IMG/VR virus record: IMGVR_UViG_2667527666_000009
Direction: 5' to 3' (one strand)
From: a virus
Lineage: Duplodnaviria; Heunggongvirae; Uroviricota; Caudoviricetes
DNA length: 46,534 nt
Part shown: piece by piece, positions 7,848-28,102 of the stretch
How positions within the stretch are numbered: position 1 is the stretch's first letter
Layout: every line of letters starts with the position of its first letter
Program-made: the position numbers and the translations under genes
Notes under the pieces: generated by a model
Seen by the model: only the letters and a program-made list of their open reading frames with translations
Told to the model about the DNA's origin: nothing
The model's database searches: none

Positions 7848-10800
7848 TCAACGAATACTGATGCCGGAAGCGGCTTTTTTGGTCACAATCACCGTACAGT
7901 CGGTGATATTACCTGCCCGCTGATTGCCTTTATGGAAAACCTTAAACTCCAGAGTGACGCTTCCCCTGCCACTCGGCATATCAATAACCGCACTGTAGCT
8001 ACCGGGAATGGCCCCTTTAGTTTCTCTGGATGCGATTAATACACCGTTTTTGCGAACTTCAAAACCATAACCCGTGTATCTTGTACCTCCCGGGTTATTA
8101 CCACTTCCCGGATCGCTATACGCTATTCCGTTAAAGATAATGGGCGGAATAATGATTTGACGGTCAAAGTTATGATCATCGCTGATGGTGACTGTAACCG
8201 TCCCGTTTGGTGTTTCCGTGTTACCCCACGTACCAGCCTGTTTCGGAAATGATTTGGATACAGCTTTAACGAAGTCACCTCTGACCTGAGTCGCCTCCAG
8301 CATGCCCTTAATCGTACAGTTTTCATTTACCGTGACATTGTTGAGCGTCCCGGCGTTCGCATTCACACTGCCACTGATATCCGCATTTTTAGCGGTCAGC
8401 TTTCCGTCCGGTGTCAGGGAAAATGCCGGTGGATTTCCACCACTGGTAATGGTCGGGGCCGTCAGGCGTTTCAGGAACACGTCGTTCATGAATATCTGAT
8501 CGCCCTGACCAACAAACATCGGTTTTGTGTTGCCATTCGCAGGATTAACCATCGCAATCCTGTCCGCCGCCAGCAGCACCTGACTCTGCATGCCGTCAGG
8601 GGTGTTCTCAATACCGGCACCAATACCCGCGATATAAAGGCGTCCGTCCTGCATCTGCTGCAGCTTCACAGCCCACATGCTGTTCAGGTTATTATTTGTA
8701 TCAACCTGAACCTTCTGTATCTGCTGAATTGCCGCACTCTGGTCTTCCAGTTTCTTATTGACGGTCTGCGTGATTTCATTGCTGACATGCGTAATGGACG
8801 TCCTGATTTCAGCCAGGTCAGGCGCAAGCTGACCGTTATCAATCTGCGTCCACAGCTCCTGAGCCAGATGGGTTTTCCCTATCTCGCCTTTGAAAAAATC
8901 CAGATAACCGGATGCATCATCACTCGGCTGACCAACAGCCTCCACGAATGCCGATTTGCCGACGGTGTTCACACTGCGAACGTAAAAATAATAATCATGG
9001 CCCGGTTTGATATTGATACTGGCAGCTATCCAGTACAGCGCCGTACCAAGATAGCGGGCTGTGGTTTCAACCTGCCTGATATCCGCAATCCGCTTTTCCG
9101 AGAACCAGAACTCAAACTGTACCGTCGGATCATAAACGGCAAGATGCGGCGTTGCGGTTATCTGAAAATAGCCCGGCGTCAGCTCAATCCGCGACGGTGC
9201 TGCCGGTGCGGCAATCCGGAACGATACCGATGCCGGATCGCCCTGCTGCCCCCAGGCATTTGCCGCCCGGACTGTCAGCCTGTAGTTTCCCAGCGCCAGT
9301 TGCGTGAAGCGGTATGTGGTTTCCGTCGTCCGGGCCGTGCTGACCAGCCGCTCACTGCCGTCGTCTGCTGCCACAGTCAGGCGAAGCATAAAGCTCACAC
9401 CCTTCACCACCTTCGGCGTGTCCCATCGCGCCAGCACCTGATATTCCCCGCTGTCTGCAGTGACTTCGGCGGTCAGATGCTGCACTGCTGGCGGCGTGAC
9501 ACCATTCACCGTGCCGCTCTGGTCACCGTCAAAGTGCGCCCCGTTATCCACGATGGCCTCTTTCTCCGGCACATGCTGCACGGCAGTGATGGCATACGTG
9601 CCGTCGTCGTTCTCACGGATACTCACGCAGCGGAACAGGCGCTGGCGCAGCGTCGGCAGCTTAAGCCCCCACACGCTGTATTCAGCAACACCGTCAGGAA
9701 CCCGGCTCACTTTTACCTTCACGCCGTCGGTGACGGACTGAACCTCCACGCTGACCGGACTCCCCTGCCCGTCAACCAGGCTTATCAGCGTGGTGCCGGA
9801 GGCTGGCAGCGTGATTTCACGGTCGAGCGTCAGTGTCCGCGTCTGGCTGTTCACCGCCAGCACGCGCCCACCGGTGCTGATGCCCGCATAGTCATCATCG
9901 CAGATTTCAATGACATCGCCCGGTACATGGCGAAGCCCTTCGGCACCCACGCTGAAGTCCACGGTCTGCGTTTCCAGCAGTTCTGTTTTAATCAGCCACA
10001 GCCCGGCTCGGTGCGCCTGCCCCCGACTGGTACAGCCAAACGCATCCATCTTCGTGACGTTACGACCGTAACGGGCAATGGCCTGCGTGTCCTCCACAAG
10101 CTCTGTCGCCGTCTCCCAGCCGTTATCCGGGTCAATCCAGTTCACCTCAACGGCATTATGGCGGTCCTTGAGGGCGCTGAAGCTGTAGCGGAACGGCGCG
10201 CCATCATCCGGCATCACCACATTACTGCGGTTATAGGTCCACACCTTATCCGACGGCCGGTCCTGCACGAACGTCAGCGTCTGCCCGTTCCATACCGGCA
10301 TACAGCGCATCGCCGAGCAGAAATCACTGAGCACATCCCACGCCTTGCGCTGTGTGGTCAGGTACGCATTACAGGTGATGCGCGGCTCCGTGCCGCCAAA
10401 GCCGTCCGGCACTGACTGGTCGCAGTACTGGCCGATGACATACAGCGCCCATTTGTCCACATCCGCCGCACCAAGACGTTTCCCCATGCCGTAGCGTGGA
10501 TGGGTCAGCATATCCCACAGACACCAGGCCATGTTATTGCTGTATGCTGGCTTAAACGTTCCGTCCCAGATACCGCTGTATTGCCGCGTCTGCGGGTTAT
10601 AGTTCGACGGCACCTGCAGAATGCGCCCGCGAAGATGATAATTACGGCTCACCTGCTGGCTGCCGAACTGCTCCGAGTCCACCTGCACGCCGACCAGTGC
10701 CGTGTTCGGGTAGCACTGTTTCACATCGATGATTTCTGTGTATGACGACCAGAGCGTTTTGTTCTGCAGCTGGTCTGTGGTGCTGTCCGGCGTCATCCTG

Positions 10801-22459: not shown

Positions 22460-26140
<3,681 letters not shown>

Positions 26141-26166
<26 letters not shown>

Positions 26167-26686
26167 TCAGCAACCCCGGTATCAGTTCATCCAGCGCGGC
26201 TGCTTTGTTCATGGCTTTGATGATATCCCGTTTCAGGAAATCAACATGTCGGTTTTCCAGTTCCGGAAAACGCCGCTGCACCGACAGGGGGATCCCGTCG
26301 AGAATACTGGCAATTTCACCTGCGATCCGCGACAGCACGAAAGTACAGAATGCGGTTTCCACCACTTCAGCGGAGTCTCTGGCATTTTTCAGCTCCTGTG
26401 CGTCGGCCTGCGCACGCGTAAGTCGATGGCGTTCATACTCAATAGTCCCTGGCTGGAGATCTGTCTCGCTGGCCAGCCGCAGTTCTTCAACCTCCCGGCG
26501 CAGCTTTTCGTTCTCAATTTCAGCATCCCTTTCGGCATACCATTTTATGACGGCGGCAGAGTCATAAAGCACCTCATTACCCTTGCCACCGCCTCGCAGA
26601 ACGGGCATTCCCTGTTCCTGCCAGTTCTGAATGGTACGGATACTCGCACCGAAAATGTCAGCCAGCTGCTTTTTGTTGACTTCCAT
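26141..26686 (-). CDS. nu1: terminase small subunit Nu1
   Basis: 181 aa; MEVNKKQLADIFGASIRTIQNWQEQGMPVL... (winged HTH) matches lambda gpNu1. Confidence 0.95.
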
Positions 26687-26863
26687 TGCTCATTCCACGG
26701 ACAAAAACAGAGAAAGGAAACGACAGAGGCCAAAAAGCTCGCTTTCAGCACCTGTCGTTTCCTTTCTTTTCAGAGGGTATTTTAAATAAAAACATTAAGT
26801 TATGACGAAGAAGAACGGAAACGCCTTAAACCGGAAAATTTTCATAAATAGCGAAAACCCGCG

Positions 26864-26875
26864 AGGTCGCCGCCC
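26864..26875. other. cos site: 12-nt cohesive-end sequence (cosN) with flanking lambda left- and right-end sequences
   Basis: plus strand AGGTCGCCGCCC is the reverse complement of lambda GGGCGGCGACCT; flanked by CGCGGGTTTTCGC and GACAGGTTACG as at the lambda termini; Nu1 starts about 180 bp away. Confidence 0.9.
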
Positions 26876-27074
26876 CGTAACCTGTCGGATCACCGGAAAG
26901 GACCCGTAAAGTGATAATGATTATCATCTACATATCACAACGTGCGTGGAGGCCATCAAACCACGTCAAATAATCAATTATGACGCAGGTATCGTATTAA
27001 TTGATCTGCATCAACTTAACGTAAAAACAACTTCAGACAATACAAATCAGCGACACTGAATACGGGGCAACCTC

Positions 27075-27308
27075 ATGTCAACGAAGAACAGAACCCGCAG
27101 AACAACAACCCGCAACATCCGCTTTCCTAACCAAATGATTGAACAAATTAACATCGCTCTTGAGCAAAAAGGGTCCGGGAATTTCTCAGCCTGGGTCATT
27201 GAAGCCTGCCGCCGGAGACTGTGCTCAGAAAAAAGAGTTTCTTCTGAAGCAAACAAAGAAAAGAGTGACATTACTGAATTGCTCAGAAAACAGGTCAGAC
27301 CAGATTGA
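27075..27308 (+). CDS. ribbon-helix-helix (CopG/Arc-like) DNA-binding protein, lambda right-end ORF homologue
   Basis: 77 aa; basic N-terminus then RNIRFPNQMIEQINIALEQKGSGNFSAWVIEACRRRL (beta-strand plus two helices typical of RHH); lies in sequence collinear with the lambda right end. Confidence 0.6.
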   Translation: MSTKNRTRRTTTRNIRFPNQMIEQINIALEQKGSGNFSAWVIEACRRRLCSEKRVSSEANKEKSDITELLRKQVRPD

Positions 27309-27365
27309 AGCAATTTAGATAATCGTGCAGACTACGCCCCCTCATATCACATGGAAGGTTTATCT

Positions 27366-27776
27366 ATGGATCAGGTAGTCATTTTTAAACAAATATTTGA
27401 TAAAGTTCGAAACGATTTAAACTATCAATGGTTTTATTCTGAGCTAAAACGTCACAATGTCTCACATTACATTTACTATTTAGCCACAGAGAATGTTCAT
27501 ATTGTATTAAAAAATGATAATACAGTGTTATTAAAGGGCCTAAAAAACATTGTGTCTGTCAAATTTTCAAAGGATAGGCATCTTATAGAAACGACCTCTA
27601 ATAAGCTGAAATCCAGAGAGATCACATTTCAGGAATACAGAAGAAACCTTGCTAAAGCAGGAGTTTTTCGGTGGGTTACAAATATCCACGAACAAAAAAG
27701 ATATTACTATACCTTTGATAATTCATTACTATTTACTGAAAGCATCCAGAAAACTACACAGATCTTACCACGCTAA
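27366..27776 (+). CDS. ydfO: DUF1398-family prophage protein (YdfO/YbcV-like)
   Basis: ORF 27351..27776; start at ATG 27366 preceded by GGAAGG; product [38 protein letters not shown]... matches recalled YdfO. Confidence 0.7.
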
Positions 27777-27927
27777 ACCATAACGTCCGGCTTCTCTCAC
27801 TCCTGAGCCGGACTGCATTGGTTTAATAAAAACCATCAACAATTGTGATTTAGATATTCGGAACCATTCAAATATAACAAAACCCCGTAAAAACGAGGTT
27901 TATGGATAAATTTTATTATTGAATACA

Positions 27928-28102
27928 TCAGATTAAATTAATCTTGACATCATAGCTTTCAAGACCCGTCATTTTTTCCCGTGCGGTAAACTGAATACTG
28001 GTAACTTCTTTCCCGGTCTTTTTCTTAAGTTCAATAATTTTTTTTTGTTATATATTCAGAAATATCTGCTTCTGCTTTTGTTTTTAAGTTTTCAATATTC
28101 AT
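27928..28102 (-). pseudogene. gnsB: gnsB-like gene interrupted by a frameshift in a 9-nt homopolymer
   Basis: minus-strand translation from ATG 28100..28102 gives MNIENLKTKAEADISEYITKK then a stop after the run of nine T (plus 28038..28046); the other frame continues IIELKKKTGKEVTSIQFTAREKMTGLESYDVKINLI, GnsA/GnsB-like to the stop at 27928..27930. Confidence 0.6.

Follow-up and report, generated by a model that had tools for sequence, protein, structure and literature searches.

The stretch of DNA analysed here, referred to as the window, comprises 46,534 nucleotides (IMG/VR record IMGVR_UViG_2667527666_000009) and carries a complete lambda-like prophage in which every late gene lies on the minus strand. 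Between cos and the lysis cassette it holds two plus-strand open reading frames, at 27075-27308 (77 aa) and at 27351/27366-27776 (141/136 aa). A preliminary description had drawn attention to them as a same-strand pair; both frames are real, lie where they had been placed, and are separated by 57 nt when the spacer is counted from the ydfO start at 27366. The locus has the following features:

24241-26166, minus strand: terminase large subunit (terminase A), intact
26141-26686, minus strand: terminase small subunit Nu1, intact
26711-26823: Nu1-binding repeats
26866-26877: cosN, the cohesive-end cutting site, aggtcgccgccc, complement of the lambda left end
26973-27005: imperfect palindrome ATCAATTATGACG / CGTATTAATTGAT (13-nt arms, 85% complementary, 7-nt spacer), a candidate operator by inference only
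27075-27308, plus strand: ynfO, 77 aa, YlcI/YnfO (DUF3950) family, based on family models, K-12 annotation and alignments
27075-27224, plus strand: ynfO codons 1-50, conserved basic domain, probably ribbon-helix-helix (RHH)
ynfO codons 51-77, plus strand: variable tail
27289-27305: PdhR-box-like palindrome AACAGGTCAGACCAGAT, overlapping the last ynfO codons and opening the DUF1398 upstream element
27293-27365, plus strand: conserved upstream element of about 75 nt (promoter or leader), from an alignment of DUF1398 genes
27366-27776, plus strand: ydfO, 136 aa from the RefSeq start or 141 aa from another possible ATG at 27351, DUF1398
27785-27813, plus strand: stable G+C-rich hairpin just 3' of the ydfO stop, terminator-like or stabilising, with no canonical U tract
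from 29351, minus strand: lysis genes, late genes of the window prophage; cspI and ynfN are likewise minus-strand late genes

In an alignment, the cosN stretch of the window is identical to that of the lambda-like phage HK629 and of E. coli 042; it marks the right end of a lambda-type genome, with the ynfO start about 200 nt inside. Over the 1.4 kb from 26700 to 28100, the window is 99.9% identical to the ynfO-ydfO-gnsB region of E. coli K-12, J53 and 042, with the adjoining gnsB being frameshifted in the window, and the direct adjacency of ynfO and ydfO is kept in about 1026 E. coli genomes. Both are thus already catalogued K-12 genes, so that their presence here is of little novelty; a 2024 survey of the y-ome still lists each of them as uncharacterised. 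Base composition changes along the locus, from a GC content of 0.52-0.56 in the terminase genes to about 0.43 between cos and ynfO, 0.30-0.37 in ydfO and 0.28-0.39 between ydfO and cspI.

YnfO matches the Pfam model DUF3950 (PF13132) with 75.6 bits (cut-off 25), the NCBIfam model NF041551 with 36.6 bits (cut-off 30) and phrog_949 at 6e-34, and it carries the motif I-R-F-P ... N-F-S-A-W-V found in two family alignments. Members down to about 35% identity keep an extended form of this motif, K-N-I-R-F-P-x-x-L-I-E-x-I ... N-F-S-A-W-V-[IL]-[ED]-A-C. Comparison of the first 50 codons between lambda-type alleles and those of Stx phages or adjacent to HNH genes yielded dN/dS values of 0.04-0.11, with synonymous sites near saturation; this purifying selection indicates that ynfO is a real gene. 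The family is small, its members among 1.84 billion proteins falling into 120 clusters at 50% identity, and it is common in E. coli: as the preliminary description had anticipated, the small frame is widely conserved, ynfO-like DNA being found at 9861 places in 4184 of 5426 complete genomes (no match in 1242), and YnfO-like sequences in 153 phage records. The expectation that it would be poorly characterised was borne out as well, both by the y-ome survey and by the RefSeq annotation of lambda, from which the YnfO-like frame of 64 aa at lambda 48109-48303 (complement strand) is absent. A match in Pasteurella phage Pmp7 cannot take over the label 'transcriptional repressor', as it runs antisense to the gene bearing that label.

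The same description had called the 77-residue protein an RHH DNA-binding protein. Here the outcome is divided: the sequence pattern and a profile comparison speak for an Arc-like protein, while the fold itself is unproven. An RHH domain spans about 45 residues, with an N-terminal strand, helix A, a tight turn and helix B, and the YnfO alignment follows this layout, including a candidate strand of alternating polar and hydrophobic residues behind a basic N-terminal arm. The AlphaFold model is non-helical at residues 14-18 and forms helices at 19-32 and from 37 onwards, with pLDDT values of 83-88 over residues 11-50; it is a monomer model, in which the RHH strand cannot form. HMMER searches of PDB and Pfam with YnfO and a 19-member family profile gave no significant RHH match, one family member reaching a non-significant E=0.12 against RHH_6. 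Alignment of the DUF3950 profile to an Arc-family alignment with hhalign, on the other hand, gave a probability of 32% and P=4.8e-4 over 26 columns in the expected register, compared to P=0.37 for a control against DUF1398. In Foldseek, the best matches of the YnfO model were CdbA, VapB and Arc, all non-significant at E>=5, with KacA as a further weak neighbour. This support is modest, consistent and short of proof; it renders an RHH fold plausible, and we consider it quite probable that YnfO adopts one. Its first 50 or so residues would then most likely form an Arc-like RHH dimer that binds DNA.

What surrounds the gene gives further hints. The palindrome at 26973-27005 is located 70-100 nt 5' of the ynfO start, abuts a weak -10-like AATAAT at 26969 and is invariant in HK629; it was not found upstream of the YnfO-like allele of an Stx phage. 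A convincing sigma-70 promoter could be recognised neither ahead of ynfO nor ahead of ydfO. In K-12, RNA-seq data show that ylcI is transcribed and that its transcripts overlap ybcW. One PICI-like satellite carries a DUF3950 gene of 60 aa at its divergent control region, behind a TATAAT with a GGTACGTACC palindrome on either side, and among such satellites one DUF3950 copy is fused to the DNA-binding domain of a terminase small subunit, the fusion protein matching Pfam Terminase_2 and, at 1.6e-4, SF6 small terminase structures. The palindrome, the transcription of ylcI and the position in the satellite control region are indirect hints; together they suggest that DUF3950 proteins regulate transcription.

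The identification of the second frame as the DUF1398 protein YdfO was confirmed by a full-length match to PF07166 (157.5 bits, cut-off 22, profile positions 1-119 of 119) and by a match to PDB entry 2HH8 (E=2e-90, 140 of 141 residues identical). YdfO is a soluble protein whose structure has been solved by NMR; AlphaFold, working from a shallow alignment, models it at a mean pLDDT of only 53. A GGAAGG Shine-Dalgarno sequence that is conserved with lambda precedes the ATG at 27366, making this the likely start. DUF1398 matches no toxin, defence or structural-protein model among Pfam profiles and PADLOC, and the PADLOC defence-system models match neither YnfO nor YdfO. DUF1398 genes have been labelled 'head protein' (phrog_413, RefSeq lambda) or 'putative envelope protein', annotations that appear to have been propagated without basis. 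Similarly, a published statement that YdfO overexpression raises oxidative-stress resistance turned out to be a mis-citation, the cited paper being concerned with YfdO of CPS-53 and never mentioning ydfO. Scanning IMG/VR with YdfO returned only loci of 96-100% identity, and a genome scan with the DUF1398 alignment reached only relatives of at least 68% identity; its matches outside Escherichia and Shigella proved to be contaminating lambda DNA.

In its location, orientation and composition, ydfO has the characteristics of an accessory ('moron') cassette: it lies on the plus strand amid minus-strand lysis, cold-shock and terminase genes, its GC content is distinct, and the content of the region varies among phages. 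It also appears to be bounded by signals of its own. At its 3' side, the fold of 27774-27835 reaches -21.7 kcal/mol (z = -5.4), with none of 200 shuffled sequences being equally stable. At its 5' side, an alignment of ydfO, lambda p78, ybcV of DLP12, an E. albertii allele, the genes of loci L073 and L108, and ycgX revealed an element of about 75 nt that precedes every DUF1398 gene examined, with the invariant core AGACCAGATT.AA and a perfect GGTC-A-GACC palindrome. Only weak promoter hexamers are discernible there, a -10-like GATAAT at 27318 and a -35 that overlaps the PdhR box. A structured RNA leader was discarded, as the element has no match in Rfam and folds no better than shuffled sequences (z = +1.06); with no known RNA family and no excess of fold, it is more likely a control region acting at the level of DNA. 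Between the two genes, no terminator was found, so that ynfO and ydfO could be co-transcribed in the arrangement of the window, which is that of the K-12 prophage Qin.

For the regulation of ydfO we rely on the literature, which provides the evidence on PdhR binding, PdhR-dependent ybcV expression, stress induction of ydfO and ylcI transcription. The sequence AACAGGTCAGACCAGAT is the PdhR site reported from genomic SELEX for ynfO>ydfO in K-12, and an equivalent site lies in the ybcV/ybcW spacer; both mRNAs are about 10-fold lower in a pdhR mutant (PMC7660256). In addition, an ionic liquid raises ydfO expression 12- to 117-fold, with a dependence on growth phase; ydfO also responds to overexpression of DicC, and ybcV is up in a sabinene-adapted strain. 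These published expression data fit a host-regulated accessory gene.

Whether the two genes belong together can be judged best from their distribution, and here the co-occurrence across genomes, on which the preliminary description had itself made the pairing depend, breaks down in both directions. A tblastn search of 50,697 phage records found YnfO-like sequences in 153 and YdfO-like sequences in 43, with at least 110 records holding a YnfO-like gene and no DUF1398 gene. What follows the cos-proximal DUF3950 gene differs from phage to phage: DUF1398 in Qin; antisense ybcW, DUF1398 and bor in lambda; and bor only, with no DUF1398, in phages 434, 1H12 and PhiR11_1. In the Stx phage YYZ-2008, the YnfO-like gene stands alone between Rz and an HNH-TerS-TerL module, again with no DUF1398 gene. 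None of six divergent DUF3950 genes has a DUF1398 gene nearby; they reside in integrative elements, in a PICI-like satellite, or in the chromosome after a TonB-dependent receptor gene near copCD-yebY. Conversely, the DUF1398 paralogue ycgX, which most E. coli possess and whose product is 43% identical to YdfO, adjoins bluR, no DUF3950 gene being present within 4 kb of it, and locus L073 carries ybcW and ydfO beside a different terminase with no DUF3950 gene. A ydfO-like DNA match is present in 5376 of the 5426 complete E. coli genomes, while only 3011 contain a full-length prophage-type copy; the partial matches that were sampled are ycgX.

In a close Escherichia clade, which constitutes a single mosaic lineage, nearly every DUF1398 gene does have a DUF3950 gene upstream, and there the two occur in two arrangements. 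In the Qin type, to which the window belongs, the conserved YnfO domain and the DUF1398 start are 142 nt apart. In the lambda/DLP12 type the same gap measures 705 nt, with about 560 extra bases that hold the antisense 68-aa gene ybcW (lambda p79). The small frame had been described as collinear with the lambda right end, and this holds in a precise sense: from cosN to ynfO codon ~48, window and HK629 differ by one base. Homology breaks after this codon and resumes at GGTCAGACCAGATTGA, in the PdhR-box region just 5' of the DUF1398 gene, which itself is about 85% identical in DNA between the window and the lambda type. The Qin and lambda arrangements accordingly carry different YnfO tails beyond residue ~49, and further tails are numerous; the position of the break indicates that the conserved YnfO domain is part of the cos block, with the C-terminal tail being swapped. 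Two candidates were dismissed: a 233-aa YnfO-YdfO 'fusion' (P0122) contains an in-frame TGA that the gene caller had read as Trp, and L120, seemingly a more divergent pair, has the arrangement already described in a decayed and frameshifted form.

It had been proposed that the pair forms a toxin-antitoxin or small regulatory module. As a type II toxin-antitoxin system, YnfO would be an RHH antitoxin and autorepressor and YdfO the toxin, in keeping with two same-strand genes of which the RHH-like one leads, separated by 57 nt that hold no terminator, and with the RHH antitoxins VapB and KacA among the best, though non-significant, structural matches of YnfO. Moreover, in a published screen, overexpression of YbcV caused glycogen deficiency, on a list that also holds the toxins YoeB and HokA; the YbcV-overexpressing strains could be scored in this colony screen. 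However, the genes distribute independently (153 versus 43 phage records, with ycgX and L073 as solitary DUF1398 genes), they differ in base composition, and DUF1398 has its own conserved upstream element and matches no toxin or defence model. Nor do they form a tight bicistronic operon, given the spacing of 57 nt here and of 705 nt with an antisense gene in lambda and DLP12. RHH antitoxins bind their toxins through the C-terminal tail, the very part of YnfO that is replaced between arrangements that both carry DUF1398. A published TraDIS list of insertion-poor genes includes the known antitoxins hipB, higA and relB, and, of the present pair, ydfO rather than ynfO. We therefore regard a toxin-antitoxin function as very improbable.

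A dedicated two-gene regulatory module, in which YnfO specifically represses or activates the DUF1398 gene, acting on ydfO in cis and possibly on ybcV and ycgX in trans via the upstream element, would gain from the DUF3950 gene upstream of almost every prophage-type DUF1398 gene sampled, from the GGTC-A-GACC palindrome in the upstream element and from the possible co-transcription in the Qin-type arrangement. We nevertheless consider it unlikely: most YnfO-like genes have no DUF1398 target nearby, 1242 of 5426 genomes are devoid of ynfO-like DNA compared to 5376 with a ydfO-like match (many of them ycgX only), the palindrome is already explained as a PdhR site with a measured effect, and the sole palindrome near the likely ynfO promoter is of a different sequence. 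In a looser version, the RHH-like protein may regulate whatever lies downstream. Alternatively, the DUF3950 protein could bind near cos and modulate packaging or the competition between helper and satellite, with ydfO being irrelevant. Two terminase modules that are unrelated to each other, Nu1/A and HNH-TerS-TerL, indeed have the DUF3950 gene next to their packaging start, one PICI-like satellite copy is fused to a terminase-small-subunit DNA-binding domain, and YlcI/YnfO proteins are described in the literature among the accessory genes of Enterobacter capsid-forming PICIs. The packaging genes are, however, expressed from the late transcript, to which the DUF3950 gene runs antisense; other members of the family lie in the chromosome, behind a TonB-dependent receptor gene and far from any phage; and L073 has a lambdoid packaging module with no DUF3950 gene. 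We also know of no requirement for a DUF3950 gene in packaging from minimal cos fragments, and altogether a role of this kind seems quite unlikely.

We think it probable that ynfO and ydfO are two independent modules that are adjacent by chance in this prophage, and not a toxin-antitoxin pair. Gene identity, coding status, synteny types, independent distribution, the compositional break and the conserved upstream element were all observed directly. In the scenario of two independent modules, ynfO would be the constant part, located some 200 nt inward of the right cohesive end in lambda-type genomes. As it is transcribed against the late operon, its expression is expected from the prophage rather than within the late transcript, and we infer that its product is a small, dimeric RHH transcription factor that binds DNA and probably controls its own synthesis. 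Downstream of this constant gene, phages would carry varying co-oriented accessory genes, of which ydfO would be one: an AT-rich 'moron' of the DUF1398 family that may confer some benefit on the host, presumably as variable cargo bringing along its own upstream element of about 75 nt with the PdhR box, its own ribosome-binding site and its 3' hairpin. With these signals of its own, ydfO is probably controlled mainly by host factors. The adjacency seen here would simply reflect the absence of the ybcW segment of about 560 nt that parts the genes in lambda and DLP12.

One can go further and view DUF3950 as an unrecognised family of Arc-like repressors. It would be a marker of lambdoid phage ends near cos, the frame at lambda 48109-48303 among them, would be found as well at the divergent control region of PICI-like satellites, and could, as a prophage-expressed regulator, control the accessory block next to cos or mediate the interplay of helper and satellite at the packaging site; we offer this only as a tentative and rather unlikely extension. 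In practical terms, the toxin-antitoxin idea for ynfO-ydfO can be dropped, and the 'head protein' and 'envelope protein' labels on DUF1398 genes are unsupported. Both genes are present in K-12 and in lambda, the best-studied phage. The small gene next to cos lends itself well to a simple experiment: it is conserved and evolves under purifying selection, its product probably binds DNA, and the lambda reference annotation lacks it.

Among known loci, the closest is ynfO-ydfO of the K-12 Qin prophage, with the same genes in the same order and spacing within the 1.4 kb of near-identical DNA. It differs in its surroundings: the window carries a whole lambda-like prophage, in which Nu1 and terminase A are intact and gnsB is frameshifted, whereas Qin is truncated at nohA. 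The right end of lambda and its counterpart in DLP12, for which we compared the ylcI-like frame, ybcW (lambda p79), ybcV (lambda p78) and bor, share the two families, their strand and position relative to cos, the DUF1398 upstream element and, apart from the one base in HK629, the DNA between cosN and ynfO codon ~48. In contrast to the window, lambda has the additional 560 or so bases with the antisense 68-aa gene, bor downstream, a different YlcI tail of 15 residues and a DUF1398 protein that is only 79% identical.

At the protein level, YnfO resembles Arc and Mnt of phage P22 in its size, its basic N-terminal arm and the sequence N-[IL]-R-[FW]-P followed by two helices; its best profile alignment is in the register of this motif, and Arc is among the top, albeit non-significant, Foldseek matches. 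As the similarity is below significance, we claim no membership, and operator, target promoter and genomic location differ, as does the long variable C-terminal helix of YnfO. With systems built on RHH antitoxins, such as KacA-KacT, VapB-VapC and RelB-RelE of the same prophage family, the locus shares a small RHH-like gene in first place, a second gene downstream on the same strand, the prophage location and the weak structural neighbours KacA and VapB. It departs from them in that co-occurrence, a tight operon and a conserved toxin-binding tail were each looked for and are lacking, and in that DUF1398 is not a known toxin family. For ydfO, the 'morons' bor and lom of lambda provide the better parallel: it occupies the accessory hot spot between lysis genes and cos, is oriented against the late operon, has a low GC content and apparently regulatory signals of its own, and, according to published data, is active in cryptic prophages under the control of host regulators. 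The parallel is one of genetic organisation, Bor being an envelope lipoprotein, while DUF1398 is a soluble protein of cytoplasmic type.

From its alternative start at 27351, ydfO shares a common reading frame with ynfO (27075-27776 in the window; 301-1002 in the corresponding locus L140), and only one TGA and 14 sense codons separate the two genes. The 233-aa "fusion" protein found in public collections (cluster P0122) is a gene-calling artefact, in which the TGA after ynfO was read as Trp. On the other side of ydfO lies a frameshifted gene:

about 27928-28102, minus strand: gnsB, frameshifted in the window

A T run at 28037-28045 comprises nine residues, compared to eight in E. coli 042 and K-12, and this extra T cuts the 57-aa GnsB to about 22 residues. 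The extra T could mark gnsB as a pseudogene, or it could come from slippage at the homopolymer or from an error in sequencing.

The claim that YdfO overexpression increases oxidative-stress resistance (PMC4077768) cites a paper (PMC3105296) that reports such resistance for YfdO of the CPS-53 prophage and in which ydfO is absent; the claim probably reflects a mix-up of gene names. K-12 ydfO has also been classed as "essential only by TraDIS", meaning that few transposon insertions were recovered, while ynfO is not in that list (PMC5821084). The scarcity of insertions in ydfO may stem from AT-rich, possibly H-NS-bound DNA, or from read mapping against the paralogue ybcV.

Relatives of ynfO, that is, DUF3950 genes, occur in phage lambda, in satellites and in chromosomes:

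lambda NC_001416 48109-48303 (2210-2404 in locus L139), complement: YlcI/YnfO-like ORF, 64 aa
E. coli CP027459.1, locus L125, 4400-5440: two DUF3950 genes of a PICI-like satellite; likewise in L126-L128
Loci L133-L137, 4001-4225 or 4001-4192: non-phage DUF3950 genes

The lambda ORF is uninterrupted and lies 199 nt from the right end; it is without annotation in RefSeq lambda (NC_001416), and J02459, HK629, HK630 and DE3 show no feature at its position. The satellite L125, which carries an integrase, a D5-type primase, Terminase_2 and a capsid gene, has both its DUF3950 genes at a divergent control region: the 60-aa gene follows two GGTACGTACC palindromes with TATAAT between them, and the 120-aa protein is a fusion with a terminase-small-subunit-like DNA-binding domain. 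The genes of L133-L137 are chromosomal and outside phages, immediately 3' of a TonB-dependent receptor gene and close to copC/copD/yebY; among these loci are large chromosomal contigs of genome assemblies at NCBI.

Many assemblies of unrelated bacteria (L088-L119) contain contigs of ~3.5 kb, corresponding to the lambda right end, or of ~48.5 kb, corresponding to whole lambda, which we suspect to be sequencing-control DNA. Some are deposited as plasmids, for example:

CP136411.1, 3566 nt: "Arcanobacterium hippocoleae plasmid unnamed1"

Further cases are a Brevibacillus fluminis "plasmid" contig and contigs of about 3.5 kb from Pedobacter, Flavobacterium and Cohnella; a paper on a fungal genome describes one lambda contig as a plasmid. 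Protein searches also returned many ~3.5-kb ENA contigs of similar appearance.

Phage records and PHROGs give DUF1398 genes the name "head protein" or "putative envelope protein":

L002 1117-1650: labelled DUF1398 gene
L139 1143-1676: labelled DUF1398 gene, lambda p78
phrog_413: labelled DUF1398 family

Neither name finds support in our analysis; YdfO is soluble, its structure has been solved by NMR, and the DUF1398 gene is oriented antisense to the late operon. An upstream element of ~75 nt (within 27286-27380 in the window), with the invariant core AGACCAGATT.AA in the alignment of DUF1398 upstream regions (A9), is common to ydfO, ybcV, lambda p78 and chromosomal ycgX, and is kept despite a protein identity of only 43%. 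A further allele is found in another viral genome:

L073 3460-5411 (IMG/VR UViG 2617270998_000002): Qin-type ydfO allele, 96% identical, with ybcW

Here, the terminase pair next to ydfO and ybcW is a different one, with a TerS of 164 aa and a TerL of 700 aa, and the region is devoid of a DUF3950 gene. The more faithful neighbour of DUF1398 may be ybcW, the antisense gene that in lambda and DLP12 lies between DUF3950 and DUF1398.
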